Origin: Minisyncoccota bacterium
Lineage (GTDB): Bacteria > Patescibacteriota > Minisyncoccia > UBA6257 > UBA9933
Assembly (NCBI GenBank): GCA_041653755.1
Contig: JBAZEU010000001.1
Span: forward strand, 129,398 to 193,397
Direction of reading: 5' to 3'
DNA: 64,000 nt
A program made the translations under genes and the position numbers. This document shows positions 45,041 through 50,413 of this stretch, piece after piece. Numbering within the stretch: the stretch's first letter is position 1; every line of letters starts with the position of its first letter. The notes under the pieces were generated by a model that worked only from the letters and a program-made list of their open reading frames with translations, did not search any database and was not told the DNA's origin.

Positions 45041-45529
45041 ATGGAAAATAATTTTGATGCCATCATAGTCTTAGGACACGGACAAAGGGAAAGGAAGATT
45101 GGCGAGATATTAAAAAATCGATTAGATAAGGCCTTTGAGATTTCTCAGGAAAATAAAGAGGCAATGATAATTTTGAGTGGGGGAAAGGTTTATTCAAACG
45201 ATTTTTCCGAGGCAGAAATAATGGCGGGATTTTTAGAAAAAAGGGGGATAGCAAAAGAAAGTTTTATTTTAGAAGATAGGTCTAAAAACACTTTCGAAAA
45301 TCTGATAAATTCTAAAAAGATTGTAGAAGAATACGGCTTTGAAAGGATTGCCTTAATAACAAGTGATTATCATTTAAAGAGAGTGAAGATGATCGCGAAA
45401 ATGATAGGTTTGAATATTTCCGGATTCTCTGCGATTTCGAAAAAGAATGTTGGATTTATATTTAAAAAGTCGATGACAGAATTTTTTAAAATAATTTTCG
45501 ATTACCTGCGGGTTAAAATATGCGCCTAG
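45041..45529 (+). CDS. DUF218 (YdcF/ElyC/SanA-like) domain protein
   Basis: IIVLGHG...LSGGKV...SEAEIMAGFL...ITSDYHLKR. Confidence 0.6.
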   Translation: MENNFDAIIVLGHGQRERKIGEILKNRLDKAFEISQENKEAMIILSGGKVYSNDFSEAEIMAGFLEKRGIAKESFILEDRSKNTFENLINSKKIVEEYGFERIALITSDYHLKRVKMIAKMIGLNISGFSAISKKNVGFIFKKSMTEFFKIIFDYLRVKICA

Positions 45530-45873
45530 CTATTATTAAAGAAGTCATTAAAGACAAATACCTTAGAACGATTTTCGCGATAAGCGCCTTGCTTTTATTG
45601 ATTGTTTTTACGCTAATTTGCTTTAAATTTATCGGCATCAGAAATCCGATAATTGTTCATTTTGATGTCTATAAAGGAATTGATTTTTTGGGAAGCCGGA
45701 TTGACGTGTTCGGTATCTTTCTGGCCGCCGTAGTGATTTTTTTAATAAATCTTTTTTTGTCTAATCATCTTTTTTATCGAGAGAGGTTTTTGTCTTATGT
45801 TTTTGCCGCTACAACACTATTTTTAGTTGTTTTGGCGCTGATAGCGATAGCCGCCATTATTTCAGTTAACTGA
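45520..45873 (+). CDS. small membrane protein (3 transmembrane helices)
   Basis: Three hydrophobic helices; overlaps the upstream gene. Confidence 0.45.
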   Translation: MRLAIIKEVIKDKYLRTIFAISALLLLIVFTLICFKFIGIRNPIIVHFDVYKGIDFLGSRIDVFGIFLAAVVIFLINLFLSNHLFYRERFLSYVFAATTLFLVVLALIAIAAIISVN

Positions 45874-45897
45874 TAAATTTGGTACACTTTACTTATG

Positions 45898-46037
45898 CCC
45901 AGTAGTATTACTGCGATATGATTAACTATAATCTTTCGTAGTAAGTCACTGGGATAAAGATTGATTAAATAATATAATATAATTAACCAATGCGATGAGT
46001 TAATCTAAAAAATTACCATCGCAGTTTCACTACTGGG
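45898..46037 (+). repeat. leader with inverted repeat CCCAGTAGTATTACTGCGAT ... ATCGCAGTTTCACTACTGGG and a third related inverted segment (45937-45953)
   Basis: Right arm abuts the ATG of the 46039 ORF; the middle segment CGTAGTAAGTCACTGGG can pair with the same left arm. Confidence 0.5.
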
Positions 46038-46038
46038 T

Positions 46039-46407
46039 ATGCCAGAAGAAGGTTTTGGGAAAGAGGAAATTGAAAGACAGCTTGAAAGCCGTTTAGAGAT
46101 TGAAAAACAGCCGGAGAAGAAGCCGGAATTTTTGAGTGAAACAGAAAAACAGGAAAAGGAGAAAATCCGGGAAGAAATCAAAAGAGTTAATTTTCAGCAA
46201 ACTGACGAAGAAGAAGCGCAAAAAGAAGCGGAATCTTTAAAGACAAAGGCTTTGCCAGGGAAAATAGACCGACTTTTTGAGTTAGCAAAAGATAAGGGAT
46301 TATTTTTCGCTTTGAAAATTGCCGAGAGCACCGGCGATGGATATCTGATTGATGTTTTTCATGACCTTTTAGCAAAAGACAGTTTTTTCAAGAAGTTTGT
46401 TCAATGA
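46039..46407 (+). CDS. Glu/Lys-rich hypothetical protein
   Basis: Stop overlaps the start of the ATPase gene (ATGA). Confidence 0.5.
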   Translation: MPEEGFGKEEIERQLESRLEIEKQPEKKPEFLSETEKQEKEKIREEIKRVNFQQTDEEEAQKEAESLKTKALPGKIDRLFELAKDKGLFFALKIAESTGDGYLIDVFHDLLAKDSFFKKFVQ

Positions 46408-48833
46408 TACAAACAATTATCACCTCAATTATTTTAGCTGCCGCAATTATCTTTTTAAGCGTTTTTTCGATGCGAGTTAAAACAAGAAAGAATATTTTGC
46501 AAAGTTTAGAAATGGTTTTGTTTTCGATACGGATTCCAAAACATGAAAAGAAAATAGAAGGTCAGGCAGCAACAGAAGCGAAAAACTTGATTGGTATGAT
46601 GGAACAGATTTTTTCTTCTTTTATCTCTTTAAAACCAAATAAAAATTTAAAAGGACCGGCGCGGATAGTTTTTGAAATTGCTTCGCAGCAAGGCGGTAGT
46701 GATATTGAATTTTTTGTGGCTGTGCCAAAATTTCTGGAAACCGGCATTGAAAAGCAAATTCAAGGAATTTATGCCGGTGCAGTCGTAGAAAAAGTTTTGG
46801 AGGATTACACGATTTTTGAACCAGACAGCGTTTCTACCGGCTCATATCTAAAACTTAACGAAGACGCATTTTTACCCATAAATACTTATTCTGATCTTCA
46901 GCAAGATCCTTTGGCGGGAATTACTAACGCATTAAGTAAGATTGTCATTGAAGAAGGCGCAGCGGTTCAACTTGTTTTAAAACCATTCAATTATCAAAAG
47001 TTTAGAAGTCAGGGGACAAAACTGATTTCTTTATTACGAGAAGGAAAGAAATTTAAAACTGCTTTAGCAGAAGCCAAAAAAAGCGCCGGGCTTAAACTTG
47101 CTGAAGAAGCGTTTTCTGGAGTAGCCGGCACAGGCAAAACATCGAAAGAAAAACAACAAGAAGACAATAAGAAGCAATACGGAGTTGATGAGACAGCGGT
47201 AGAAGTTATCGGCAAAAAAATAAAAAAGCCGTTATTTGAATCAAATATACGATTAGTTGTTTCAGCGAAAACAGCGGAAAGAGCTGAAGAAATTTTAAGC
47301 CATCTTGAGAGCAGTTTCGGCCAGTTAGCGTCTTCTAATAGTTTTAAAAGCGTAAAAATAAGACCGCGGCAACTTCATAATTTTATTCATAATTTCAGTT
47401 TCAGGGATTTTTCAGAAGCGGAAAAGAATATTTTGAATATAGAAGAGCTTTCGAGCATTTATCATTTTCCAACACCTTACTTGGAAACGCCGAATATCAA
47501 ATGGATAAAAAGCACTTATGCTCCACCACCAGTTGAGCTTCCGCAGTCAGGAGAAATGCTTTTGGGGAAGATTGTTTTCCGCGGAGAAGAAAAACCGGTT
47601 TATTTCCATTCGGTTGATGACAGAAGAAGGCATTTTTACGTCGTCGGACAAACCGGCACCGGTAAAAGCTCTTTGTTGCGCGAGATGATTCGTCAGGATA
47701 TTGAAAGCGGCAAAGGAGTGGCTGTAATTGATCCTCATGGCGATTTAATTGAAGATACTTTAGCTAATATCCCGAAAAATCGTCTTGAAGATGTTGTTCT
47801 ATTCGAGCCGTTTAATATGGAACGACCGATTGGTCTTAATATGCTCGAATATGATTCGCCGGAACAGAAGGATTTCGCGGTTCAGGAAATGATTTCTATC
47901 TTTCAGAAGCTTTTTCCGCCAGAAATTATCGGTCCGATGTTCGAGCATTATATGAGAAATGCGATGCTGGCGTTAATGGCGGATAAAAATAATCCGGGGA
48001 CTTTAGTTGAAGTTCCCCGTATTTTCACTGACGCAGAATTTATGGAAGAAAGATTAAGCCATGTGACTGATCCGATTGTTCGTTCTTTTTGGGAAAAAGA
48101 ATGGAAGCAGACAACCGGGCAAAGTAAATCAGAAATGTTGGGCTATGTTGTTTCAAAAGTCGGCAGATTCATTGAGAATGAAATGATGAGGAATATAATC
48201 GGCCAATCGCATTCAGGGTTTGATTTAGCGGAAGTTATGAATAATGGAAAGATATTTTTGGCGAATCTTTCAAAGGGGCAAACAGGAGAAGTGAATAGTT
48301 CGTTATTGGGATTAATTTTGGTCTCCAAAATGCAAATGGCGGCAATGAGAAGAGCAAATCTTCCGCAGGAAGAAAGAAAAGATTTTTATCTTTATGTCGA
48401 CGAGTTCCAAAATTTTACAACCGATAGTATCGTGACAATTTTGTCAGAAGCCAGAAAATATAAGCTTAATTTGATTTTGGCGCATCAATATATTCCTCAG
48501 CTTGAAGAACAGATTAAAAACGCGGTTGTCGGAAATGTCGGAACCATTGCTTCATTTAGGGTTGGAGCTGATGATGCTGAATTTTTGGAAAAACAATTCT
48601 CTCCGGAGTTTTCAAAGCACGATTTGGTTAATTTGGATAACTTTAACGCTATTTTGAAAATGATTATAAATAATAAGATTTCTACGCCTTTCAGGATGGA
48701 AACCATATTGCCAAAGAAAGGGGATTATGATATAATTCAACCATTGAGAGATTTATCGCAATTAAAATACGGAAAACCAAAAGAAATCGTGGAAAAAGAG
48801 ATTATAGAAAGATCGAAATTAGGGGCATTATAA
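46404..48833 (+). CDS. membrane-anchored FtsK/HerA-superfamily ATPase, type IV coupling protein (VirD4/TrwB)-like
   Basis: N-terminal transmembrane helix; Walker A GQTGTGKSS followed by VIDPHGD; Walker B LYVDEFQNF; about 350-aa N-terminal region of unknown type. Confidence 0.55.
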   Translation: MIQTIITSIILAAAIIFLSVFSMRVKTRKNILQSLEMVLFSIRIPKHEKKIEGQAATEAKNLIGMMEQIFSSFISLKPNKNLKGPARIVFEIASQQGGSDIEFFVAVPKFLETGIEKQIQGIYAGAVVEKVLEDYTIFEPDSVSTGSYLKLNEDAFLPINTYSDLQQDPLAGITNALSKIVIEEGAAVQLVLKPFNYQKFRSQGTKLISLLREGKKFKTALAEAKKSAGLKLAEEAFSGVAGTGKTSKEKQQEDNKKQYGVDETAVEVIGKKIKKPLFESNIRLVVSAKTAERAEEILSHLESSFGQLASSNSFKSVKIRPRQLHNFIHNFSFRDFSEAEKNILNIEELSSIYHFPTPYLETPNIKWIKSTYAPPPVELPQSGEMLLGKIVFRGEEKPVYFHSVDDRRRHFYVVGQTGTGKSSLLREMIRQDIESGKGVAVIDPHGDLIEDTLANIPKNRLEDVVLFEPFNMERPIGLNMLEYDSPEQKDFAVQEMISIFQKLFPPEIIGPMFEHYMRNAMLALMADKNNPGTLVEVPRIFTDAEFMEERLSHVTDPIVRSFWEKEWKQTTGQSKSEMLGYVVSKVGRFIENEMMRNIIGQSHSGFDLAEVMNNGKIFLANLSKGQTGEVNSSLLGLILVSKMQMAAMRRANLPQEERKDFYLYVDEFQNFTTDSIVTILSEARKYKLNLILAHQYIPQLEEQIKNAVVGNVGTIASFRVGADDAEFLEKQFSPEFSKHDLVNLDNFNAILKMIINNKISTPFRMETILPKKGDYDIIQPLRDLSQLKYGKPKEIVEKEIIERSKLGAL

Positions 48834-48846
48834 TTAATAAAAATAT

Positions 48847-49617
48847 ATGAACAATATTGAAAAAGGACATCAATTTGAAGCACCGATAGAAGAAAGGGGA
48901 AAAGAACTTCCTTGGGATGCTGAAAAAGAAATTACCAAAGATGATTGGCAGGCAATGAAAAGCGAACTAGAGCATTACAGGAAAATAGGTGGTTGGGGAG
49001 GATTTTCTTCGCAAGCAATGGAAATGAAAATAATTAATCCTGAGATAGATCTTAATCTTGATGAAAAAGACTGGGAAGGAATGAAATGGATGTTAGAATT
49101 TTACAGGAAAAGAGATAGGGATAATAGAGTAGAAGGTAATTTGGAGGATTTTACCAAACAAGCAATGGAAATGAAGATTATTAATTCTGAAACAGAGCTT
49201 AATCTTGATACTAAAACTTGGCAAGGTATGAAAAATGAATTAGAGGGTCACAGGAAAGAAATTGATTTGCTGAGGCATTTTTTACCCAGGCAGGCGATGA
49301 GAATGAAAATCCTTAGCCCCGAGATAGATCTTAACCTTGATGAAAAAGATTGGCAAAAGATGAAAGATGGATTAGAAGACCGTAGAAAACAGGGTAATTG
49401 GTGGGATTTTTGTTCACGGGCAATGGAAATGAAAATTCTTGATCCTGAAGTAGAACTTAACCTTGATGAAAAAGCTTGGCAAGGGATGAAAGATGGATTA
49501 GCTTTTCATAGAAAAGGGCATAATTGGTTGCATTTTTCTCATCAAGCAATGGGGATGAAAATTCTTGCTAGTCCAAGAGTTAAAATCCCTCCAGAAGGAG
49601 GATTAGAAGTGGAGTAG
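48847..49617 (+). CDS. tandem-repeat protein (five ~40-aa repeats of QAMEMKI..PE.DLNLDEK.WQGMK..LE..RK)
   Basis: Internal periodicity visible in the translation. Confidence 0.5.
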   Translation: MNNIEKGHQFEAPIEERGKELPWDAEKEITKDDWQAMKSELEHYRKIGGWGGFSSQAMEMKIINPEIDLNLDEKDWEGMKWMLEFYRKRDRDNRVEGNLEDFTKQAMEMKIINSETELNLDTKTWQGMKNELEGHRKEIDLLRHFLPRQAMRMKILSPEIDLNLDEKDWQKMKDGLEDRRKQGNWWDFCSRAMEMKILDPEVELNLDEKAWQGMKDGLAFHRKGHNWLHFSHQAMGMKILASPRVKIPPEGGLEVE

Positions 49618-49621
49618 ATAT

Positions 49622-50413
49622 ATGGAAACATTAAGACACGAAAATTCTGAAGAAGAAAAGTTAGCGATAGAAAACCTTTACGAAACAGCAGGGGAACATG
49701 TTGCTGAGTTTTTGCCGCAACTAAAAGAATTATCAAAGGAATTAAACGAGAAAGGTTTTCCGGTAGATGAAAATTGCAGAATAAAAATAGAATCATTTAT
49801 TGGCAAAGAAGGTTTTAGCGAAGAGATGATTCAAAAGGATAGTCAGGCAGCTCTTAGCTTAGAAAAGAAATTTTTGGAACAAGACGGAGATAAAGAAGTT
49901 CAAGAGAAAAACATTGGTGAATTGATGGAGATAATGAAAACCTTAGCTTTCAATAAACATTGGTTTCAAAGCCGCTTAATTGCCTTGAGAACCACTAAAT
50001 TTGATGATTATTTTAGTGGTATAGATGAGATCGTTTTCGATACTGAAACTCACCAACCGCTTGCGGCAATTGACACAACTACAAATCCTCAGGAAAAAGC
50101 TAAGTTGGTGAAAGAGCAAATTAAAAAAGGCGGCAGAGTAAGATATGGCTTTGATACAAAGGATGGTAAAGAAAAATCATTAAAAGATTTACCAACTTTT
50201 ATAATTTCTTTAACAGCGAAGGATCTTTCTAGGATAATAGAAGGCCTTAAAGGGAATGAAGAGTTTGATAAAAATTTTCATTACGAACAACAGATTATTT
50301 GGTCCTTAGGACAACAAAGTATTGCTTTTCAGGCCTTTGTTGATAAAGAAAACCCAGCGGTAAAGGAATCGTACCATAGGGCTGGAAAAATCTTTAAAGG
50401 TTTGATAAGATAA
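49622..50413 (+). CDS. hypothetical protein
   Basis: 4-nt gap from the upstream gene; no recognisable motif. Confidence 0.5.
   Translation: METLRHENSEEEKLAIENLYETAGEHVAEFLPQLKELSKELNEKGFPVDENCRIKIESFIGKEGFSEEMIQKDSQAALSLEKKFLEQDGDKEVQEKNIGELMEIMKTLAFNKHWFQSRLIALRTTKFDDYFSGIDEIVFDTETHQPLAAIDTTTNPQEKAKLVKEQIKKGGRVRYGFDTKDGKEKSLKDLPTFIISLTAKDLSRIIEGLKGNEEFDKNFHYEQQIIWSLGQQSIAFQAFVDKENPAVKESYHRAGKIFKGLIR

Follow-up and report, generated by a model that had tools for sequence, protein, structure and literature searches.

In a 64,000-nucleotide (nt) stretch of DNA from a Minisyncoccota bacterium (GenBank assembly GCA_041653755.1, contig JBAZEU010000001.1, positions 129,398 to 193,397 of the forward strand), here called the window, an 809-residue membrane-anchored ATPase and the small protein encoded directly before it, open reading frame 1 (ORF1), appear to form a conserved unit. 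The reading that we prefer, with moderate confidence in the statement as a whole, is that the ATPase, chromosomally encoded in Patescibacteria, descends from the coupling protein (VirD4 family) of conjugative type IV secretion systems (T4SSs) of single-membrane bacteria, that ORF1 and this descendant of type IV coupling proteins (T4CPs) act as a functional unit likely serving a T4SS, and that the next two genes of the run, ORF3 and ORF4, are passengers. Confidence is high for the identity of the ATPase and the two-gene core taken jointly, and evenly balanced for the coupling of the pair to a T4SS.

The run comprises four plus-strand genes, in which ORF1 (122 aa, 46039-46407) shares a 4-nt ATGA overlap with the ATPase gene (46404-48833). 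An earlier reading made from the letters alone (hereafter the sequence-only reading) had taken the four genes for one module, and it described correctly that they overlap or are separated by at most 13 nt and lie between a structured leader and rplU.

Family and predicted structure of the ATPase

Residues 387-739 of the ATPase matched four Pfam families above their cut-offs, namely T4SS-DNA_transf, TrwB_AAD_bind, DUF87, and TraG-D_C, with scores of 38.9 bits for PF02534 (cut-off 20.1), 38.6 bits for PF10412 (cut-off 20.5), and 25.0 bits for PF12696 (cut-off 22). Judged by these profile matches, the ATPase is a member of the T4CP (VirD4-type) family within the VirD4/VirB4 superfamily, which bears out the description T4CP/HerA-like in the sequence-only reading. 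The NCBIfam equivalog models for specific TraD/VirD4 types scored far below their cut-offs, indicating that the ATPase is not the equivalog of any named T4CP. HerA_C (E 0.013) and FtsK_SpoIIIE (E 0.02) also remained below cut-off and covered only the P-loop, and none of the VirB4 families CagE_TrbE_VirB, AAA_10, TraC_F_IV, and P-loop_TraG matched the ATPase at E <= 1. More than 5,000 homologues of the ATPase were found, with 57-66% identity over the full length across Paceibacteria species, and an exact-sequence look-up of the protein returned no record. The motifs GQTGTGKSS (residue 415), VIDPHGD (residue 441), and LYVDEFQNF (residue 663) fall in columns that are invariant across 68 homologues, as are many other columns.

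The domain organization of the protein was deduced from hydropathy, profile matches, and AlphaFold2 (AF2) models. A single transmembrane (TM) helix was predicted as the N-terminal anchor (residues 1-27, nt 46404-46484, plus strand; AF2 helix 2-34), and it is followed directly by RVKTRK, suggesting by the positive-inside rule that the rest of the ATPase is cytoplasmic. The next domain, DUF8128 (residues about 35-385, nt 46506-47558, plus strand; precomputed assignment PF26449), is alpha/beta. The RecA-like nucleotide-binding domain (nt 47559-48713, plus strand) was delimited by Pfam, the invariant motifs, AF2, and Foldseek; it contains Walker A (GQTGTGKSS, nt 47646-47672, plus strand), Walker B (LYVDEFQNF, nt 48390-48416, plus strand), and, between the two, an all-alpha insert in the AF2 model (residues about 486-600, nt 47859-48203, plus strand). 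The motifs, the one N-terminal TM helix, and the 350-aa region that the sequence-only reading had described are all present.

The full-length AF2 model (pLDDT 81.5) consists of the TM helix (2-34), an alpha/beta N-domain (37-360), the RecA-like core, and the helical insert. When it was compared with the PDB by Foldseek, the top match was TrwK/VirB4 of R388 (E 2e-15, about 900 aligned columns), followed at lower ranks by TrwB and then by HerA and Cagbeta; TrwB matched the C-domain of the ATPase with TMt 0.58-0.63 and E about 1e-11 to 1e-12. A model of DUF8128 alone (pLDDT 74.8, pTM 0.77) gave 14 PDB matches at E <= 1e-3, every one of them a TrwK/VirB4 chain (E 2e-7 to 5e-5, TMq 0.35-0.44), and the next matches were unrelated, with E > 4e-3. 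TrwB and HerA were absent from this match list, indicating that it is the VirB4 N-terminal domain, rather than the RecA fold, that DUF8128 resembles. In the predicted models, DUF8128 folds like the N-terminal domain of VirB4. The domain is present in 1,236 representative clusters (50% identity).

Relatives of the ATPase outside Patescibacteria were found in plasmids and phages, with 279 plasmid records containing homologues. The protein WP_331738717 (812 aa) of the actinomycete Embleya sp. (plasmid NZ_CP108778) shares 27% identity with the ATPase over 726 aa (E 3e-72); the homology spans most of the N-domain, and the N-terminal TM helix is present. Its gene lies in the order TrbL/VirB6-like, PrgI, XF1762, VirB4-like ATPase, T4CP homologue, Replic_Relax relaxase, and NlpC/P60, and its VirB4-like neighbor matches P-loop_TraG, AAA_10, and TraC_F_IV, unlike the window ATPase. 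A Bacillus subtilis plasmid homologue adjoins the TcpC, TcpD, and TcpE genes. These two contexts indicate that the family holds the coupling-protein slot of monoderm conjugative systems beside a separate VirB4, and that the window ATPase descends from conjugative T4CPs. We also considered whether the homologue on this 65-kb B. subtilis plasmid is the T4CP of pLS20, and rejected this: the hit is a 913-aa protein without a TM helix beside the Tcp genes, and gene 48 of pLS20 encodes 786 aa with two TM helices (PMC8557374).

In phages, PHROG 5156, a family with no assigned function, matched the ATPase over its full length (E 6e-87); its members include gp156 of Bacillus phage G, gp91 of CP-51, and gp033 of 0105phi7-2. 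By tblastn, the phage homologues show 20-23% identity over 81-85% of the ATPase, including most of the N-domain, and the depositors of 0105phi7-2 likewise recorded an HHpred match to TrwK. The homologues of Bacillus phage 0105phi7-2 (L091:4662-7205), CP-51 (L092:3779-6514), phage G (gp156), and plasmid-prophages have no TM helix. Small hypothetical genes precede the phage homologues, and ORF1 homologues are not among them.

ORF1 and the conserved neighborhood

ORF1 is a soluble protein with no predicted TM helix. Its N-terminal half is E/K-rich, as the sequence-only reading had noted, and poorly conserved; charged residues make up 50% of positions 1-80, among them 21 E and 12 K. The C-terminal part carries a conserved helical motif (residues about 66-120, nt 46234-46398, plus strand; consensus KGVxFAVxVAxxMxDPYxLDxFHDxLAK), and L79, D105, and D109 are invariant in alignment A7. 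Searches of ORF1 against Pfam, NCBIfam, PADLOC, PHROGs, and PDB profiles gave no credible match, and no match to PrgI/VirB3 was found. ORF1 homologues were not found beside the phage and plasmid homologues of the ATPase.

For the analysis of the neighborhood, 80 species-level ATPase loci were drawn from GTDB genomes, exact look-ups supplied a few others, and 84 loci were clustered gene by gene. The ORF1 family occupied position -1 on the same strand in 74 of 81 loci, with a median gap of about 10 nt; the ORF1-to-ATPase gaps were mostly -4 to +25 nt across loci. Position +1 was variable, and its most frequent occupant was efp on the opposite strand. ORF3 was present in 0 of the 83 other ATPase loci and ORF4 in 5. 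In this clustering only ORF1 stays with the ATPase, indicating that the conserved unit is ORF1 plus the ATPase, so that the four-gene module of the sequence-only reading shrinks to two genes.

The link between the two proteins was further supported by gene fusions. The ORF1 hidden Markov model (HMM) matched residues about 10-127 of DUF8128 ATPases of 907-932 aa (E 1e-5 to 6e-9) and also shorter ATPase fragments (E down to 1e-12), and an hhalign comparison of the ORF1 family with one fused protein, P0211, gave E 1.3e-5 over the motif. Judged by hydropathy, the fused ATPases have no TM helix. The named fused proteins (P0291, and P0310 of the P0227 cluster) are from Paceibacterota/Minisyncoccia. 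The fusion argues strongly that ORF1 and the ATPase are linked both physically and functionally, and its location at the ATPase N-terminus assigns ORF1 to this side of the protein. Gene order and fusion both identify ORF1, at the level of sequence, as a dedicated partner of the ATPase. The fused ORF1-ATPases observed comprise P0211, P0198, P0276, P0291, and P0304, and one is encoded at L095:10001-12730.

Another protein recurred in other lineages. A protein of about 200 aa with an N-terminal TM helix was encoded at position -2, on the same strand as the ATPase, in 44 of 79 loci (for example L001:6977-7585), and its extracytoplasmic domain is conserved and contains Cys. The window encodes no homologue of this TM protein, and Pfam gave no match to it. 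In other lineages it may serve as a third component that spans the membrane.

At one locus (L014:10340-11348), and probably at a second (L046), about 1 kb of extra DNA was observed directly 3' of the ATPase gene. In L014 this DNA ends in a duplicate of the last ~22 ATPase codons (KLKYGRPRALVEREIMERSKL), which suggests an insertion at the 3' end of the ATPase gene with target duplication. An intein was considered for the longer matches of L014 and L046 and was rejected, as the L014 gene has the normal length and the additional span reflects the duplicated 3' end ~1 kb downstream.

Possible roles of the pair

Under the preferred reading, ORF1 would bind the ATPase on its N-terminal side and act there as a dedicated subunit, adaptor, or regulator; in the fused lineages, an ORF1-like domain sits at the same place and substitutes for the membrane helix. 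The ATPase would assemble as a membrane-associated, hexameric, nucleoside triphosphate-driven motor, and this motor may recruit a macromolecule (DNA or protein) and push it to a membrane channel. The channel would probably be a Patescibacteria T4SS encoded elsewhere in the genome.

Orphan T4CPs as such are already known in Patescibacteria and were catalogued in 2025. Quinonero-Coronel et al. 2025 (PMC12102498) report 5,713 VirD4-like T4CP homologues, which occur in 2,918 of the 3,035 Patescibacteria genomes and of which only 148 are near virB4; relaxases are almost absent from these genomes, the T4SS is vertically inherited in most Patescibacteria, and the VirD4-like homologues lie mostly far from virB4. 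The sequence-only reading had called the function unknown, and by this catalogue the family, at least, is a known one. Our literature search found no paper on DUF8128, nor on DUF87 together with the candidate phyla radiation. The DUF8128/VirB4-like N-domain, the ORF1 partner with its fused forms lacking a TM helix, and the ~200-aa protein at position -2 were not found in the searched passages of PMC12102498. We found no description of four features and regard them as new: the VirB4-like N-domain; ORF1 as a partner, with its fusion; the TM protein of ~200 aa at position -2; and the existence of a split TM-anchored form beside a fused soluble one.

Patescibacteria genomes are tiny, yet nearly all keep a T4CP-like ATPase, and the Patescibacteria T4SS is essential for epibiotic growth in the sole genetically tractable species. 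The two-protein pair, with its fused form in some lineages and a third, extracytoplasmic neighbor in others, the VirB4-like DUF8128, and the core context would make the label 'orphan T4CP' testable through interaction, localization, and secretion-system dependence.

Several points weigh against the preferred reading. The pair had no linked T4SS gene in the window, nor at 83 of the 84 loci. In PMC12102498, VirB4 was recorded in 2,417 Patescibacteria genomes, fewer than the 2,918 with T4CP homologues, and the t4cp homologue of Ca. Southlakia epibionticum was dispensable for epibiotic growth, while the T4SS genes were essential; this homologue may not be an orthologue of the DUF8128 type. The VirB4-like N-domain and the possession of just one TM helix are atypical for VirD4 proteins, and the likeness of DUF8128 to VirB4 is at fold level, as its sequence profile found nothing in the PDB. 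Finally, we infer rather than observe the ORF1-ATPase contact, the oligomeric state, the substrate, and the direction of transport.

The first alternative, which we judge somewhat unlikely, is that the pair is an exapted, T4SS-independent housekeeping translocase, for example for the import of DNA or nucleotide polymers, for chromosome handling at division, or for the assembly of an envelope structure. The dispensability of t4cp and the excess of T4CP homologues over VirB4, both taken from PMC12102498, fit such a T4SS-independent role, and its authors state that 'exaptation cannot be ruled out'. The ATPase is conserved at the level of a housekeeping protein, and the pair adjoins dcw/murF genes both in this clade and in several further ones and, in one fused case, follows directly after a ribosomal-secY-adk-map block. 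The pair was never adjacent to T4SS genes in the loci compared, and Wang et al. 2023 (PMC10633639) saw no recognizable coupling protein inside the essential T4SS cluster. The existence of fused forms without a TM helix, and of homologues in Bacillus phages and plasmid-prophages with no conjugation genes in their annotated flanks, points in the same direction. Against this alternative, T4CP genes commonly lie away from virB4 even in conjugative elements, according to PMC12102498, and the nearest non-Patescibacteria homologues with an interpretable context occupy the T4CP position of T4SS clusters. No positive evidence pointed to any specific T4SS-independent process, and the synteny with dcw and ribosomal genes may be mere conserved gene order. 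A bolder form of the same idea, which we consider rather unlikely, is that the pair is a near-universal T4SS-independent housekeeping machine and a surviving VirB4-VirD4 intermediate, handling or importing nucleic acid or polymers at sites such as the host-epibiont interface or the cell division site, with a membrane-anchored split form and a soluble fused form.

The window belongs to the core chromosome of a Patescibacterium of the Paceibacteria type, with proteins that NCBI lists under "Candidatus Paceibacterota", and it also encodes dnaG, rpoD, alaS, thrS, dnaE, gatB, and cysS. On the 5' side of the locus lie a dcw block (mraZ-rsmH-ftsI-murF), tRNA-Glu, a DUF218 gene, and a small protein with three TM helices; on the 3' side lie rplU, recR, and dnaB. 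A scan of ten large window ORFs and the genes on both sides of the operon revealed no T4SS component, in line with the sequence-only reading, and no relaxase, integrase, or defense genes were seen in the parts of the window examined. The same parts gave no linkage to relaxase or T4SS genes, and the recurrent flanking families in the 84 loci are housekeeping families. The sequence-only reading had excluded a conjugation system, and this held: neither here nor in the 83 related loci fetched does the pair lie in a conjugation locus. The context carries no mobile or defense signature and is one of core housekeeping genes.

T4SS-like genes lay in range of the ATPase at just one of the 84 loci, L003 of Nealsonbacteria (CP179892.1; L003:16035-18454). 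There, about 5.6 kb 3' of the ATPase gene and with housekeeping genes between, two proteins are encoded: a Cys-rich one of 410 aa, in which a T4SS_pilin domain scores 27.6 bits (cut-off 26.6), and a polytopic VirB6-like membrane protein of 825 aa.

Passenger genes, leader, and comparison with known systems

ORF3 (256 aa, 48847-49617, plus strand) starts 13 nt past the ATPase gene, and ORF4 (263 aa, 49622-50413, plus strand) starts 4 nt past ORF3. The gene rplU (ribosomal protein L21, 50459-50764, plus strand) follows 45 nt past ORF4, and the first strong terminator-like hairpin of the gene run lies 3' of rplU. ORF3 and ORF4 are probably co-transcribed with the pair. ORF3 consists of five helical repeats of 42-49 aa, confirming the five tandem repeats of the sequence-only reading; AMxMKI motifs start at residues 57, 106, 150, 192, and 234, and WxxMK motifs at residues 34, 76, 125, 169, and 211, with periods of 42-49 aa. 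At the DNA level, Tandem Repeats Finder detected only the last two copies (period 126 nt, 80% match). ORF4 belongs to a narrow Paceibacteria family with the conserved motifs GELLE..KT..FN..WF, RTSKFDD..G.DE.IFD, and PLAAxDTTT; its acidic motifs are strongly conserved. No credible match was obtained for ORF3 in Pfam, NCBIfam, PADLOC, PDB, or PHROG, and ORF4 gave no credible family or structure match in Pfam, NCBIfam, PADLOC, PHROGs, or PDB profiles. The sequence-only reading had raised the assignment of the whole operon to known families by profile search; this came about for the ATPase, which falls in a characterized family, and not for its three partner proteins, which match no known system.

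Effectors and adaptors are often encoded beside T4CPs. With the tight spacing of the four genes (13 and 4 nt) and the lack of a strong terminator-like hairpin ahead of rplU, this would favor a second alternative, in which all four genes form one module and ORF3 and ORF4 are substrates, adaptors, or regulators of the ATPase. ORF4 homologues directly 3' of the ATPase gene in L014, L015, L044, and L045 fit this as well, as do genes of similar size at the ORF4 position in L089 (259 aa) and L090 (255 aa), which were matched by size and position. In L086 the ORF4 homologue lies one gene off. We nevertheless consider this alternative improbable, and for ORF3 it is already largely refuted. Besides its absence from the other ATPase loci, ORF3 has homologues elsewhere, on two metagenomic contigs, that are arrayed as 11-13 tandem paralogues behind an unrelated AAA/AAA_5 ATPase of ~725 aa. 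The ORF3 slot is empty in L089 (79% identity), which is among the closest relatives, and in L090 (82% identity) it is filled by another gene; the interval between the ATPase gene and ORF4 therefore appears to be a variable insertion slot. Near the homologue of ORF4 in L087, the genes called over 6 kb on each side include no DUF8128/T4CP ATPase. Both families are tiny (18 homologues for ORF3 and 14 for ORF4), as against the number for the ATPase. ORF3 is a lone, stray member of a family whose usual context is unrelated, and it rides in a variable slot as a lineage-specific passenger; the association of ORF4 with the ATPase is frequent within the clade and not obligatory, and ORF4 is largely a passenger. 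Neither ORF3 nor ORF4 should be counted among the parts of the machine.

Further observations were made on these genes. The gene in the ORF3 slot of L090 (L090:10443-10925) encodes a 160-aa receiver-domain-like protein, whose match to Response_reg (E 1.6e-5) is below the cut-off. The ORF3-type arrays lie on L088:1-14227 (JGI 3300014205 Ga0172380_10004249) and on a 12.5-kb ENA contig; the paralogues are ~255-290 aa long, are 2-12 nt apart, and have in common the N-terminus MSYNPDRINIHELTVEEPEK and the C-terminus ...MKILAAEKVEVTDKGLEITM...PPIPEAKQF. The L088 array is followed by a gene for a 435-aa protein with an HESGHH motif. No member of the ORF3 family was found in IMG/VR viral contigs.

The sequence-only reading had also suggested a defense-like module, and an anti-phage module built on a HerA/T4CP-like ATPase is very improbable: the PADLOC model mad8 matches residues 404-707 of the ATPase (E 4.7e-18), with weaker matches for HerA defense models, but only the generic ATPase core is matched, ORF1, ORF3, and ORF4 have no defense-model match with an E-value better than about 0.01, the locus lacks a nuclease, methylase, or sirtuin partner, and the ATPase, found once per locus and highly conserved, is vertically syntenic among core genes (dcw, ribosomal, replication) and not in a variable island.

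A structured 5' leader (165 nt, 45880-46045, plus strand) precedes ORF1, as the sequence-only reading had indicated. Its minimum free energy is -44.3 kcal/mol (z = -4.96 vs shuffled controls), and its long-range closing stem is CCCAGTAGT...ACTACTGGG, the 3' arm of which touches the ORF1 ATG. The leader is specific to this genome; its inverted arms occur once in the window, L089 and L090 lack it and have a spacer of just 50-60 nt at this place, and a comparison with Rfam gave nothing at E <= 1. On these grounds (no Rfam match, absence from the two relatives, unique arms) a conserved riboswitch or leader RNA of the module was rejected. The leader could have been inserted recently, or it could exert lineage-specific control of translation. 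Upstream of it, a DUF218-family gene and the gene for a 117-aa protein (window 45041-45873) overlap by 10 nt; the 117-aa protein has three predicted TM helices and no family match. Both genes are kept 5' of ORF1 in L089 and L090 and not in the wider locus set.

The pair was finally compared with known systems. With HerA and FtsK, the ATPase shares the P-loop superfamily, a DUF87 match around Walker A, and a lower-ranked Foldseek match to HerA; it differs in that the HerA and FtsK matches are confined to the P-loop region and that no NurA partner or nuclease is encoded among the neighboring genes. From MADS/HerA-type defense it differs in that only mad8 is matched, with no other mad genes, and in its core-gene context. 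The phage proteins of PHROG 5156 are full-length homologues, but they lack the TM helix and an ORF1 homologue.

The VirB4 gene is usually preceded by virB3, and the small gene directly 5' of the ATPase gene stands at this usual virB3 position. The ATPase also resembles VirB4 (TrwK of R388; PDB 7O42, 7O43, 8RTD) in its two-domain build of about 800 aa, and these structures are its best Foldseek matches. It differs from VirB4 in that it matches no VirB4 sequence profile, that ORF1 has no TM helix, unlike VirB3, and that no mating-pair-formation genes lie nearby.

With the VirD4-type T4CPs (TrwB of R388, Cagbeta, and the Embleya T4CP), the window ATPase shares the RecA-like nucleotide-binding domain, the Walker A and B motifs, the all-alpha insert, the TraG-D_C region, and an N-terminal membrane anchor, although this anchor is one TM helix instead of the usual two. 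It is homologous over its full length to the T4CP encoded between the VirB4-like ATPase and the relaxase in Embleya. In contrast to these T4CPs, it is chromosomal, vertically inherited, and encoded away from T4SS and relaxase genes; TrwB does not have the roughly 350-aa domain resembling the VirB4 N-terminal domain, and the ORF1 partner is specific to Patescibacteria and was not found beside the non-Patescibacteria homologues. The orphan T4CPs of Patescibacteria in PMC12102498 are of the same gene class as the window ATPase.

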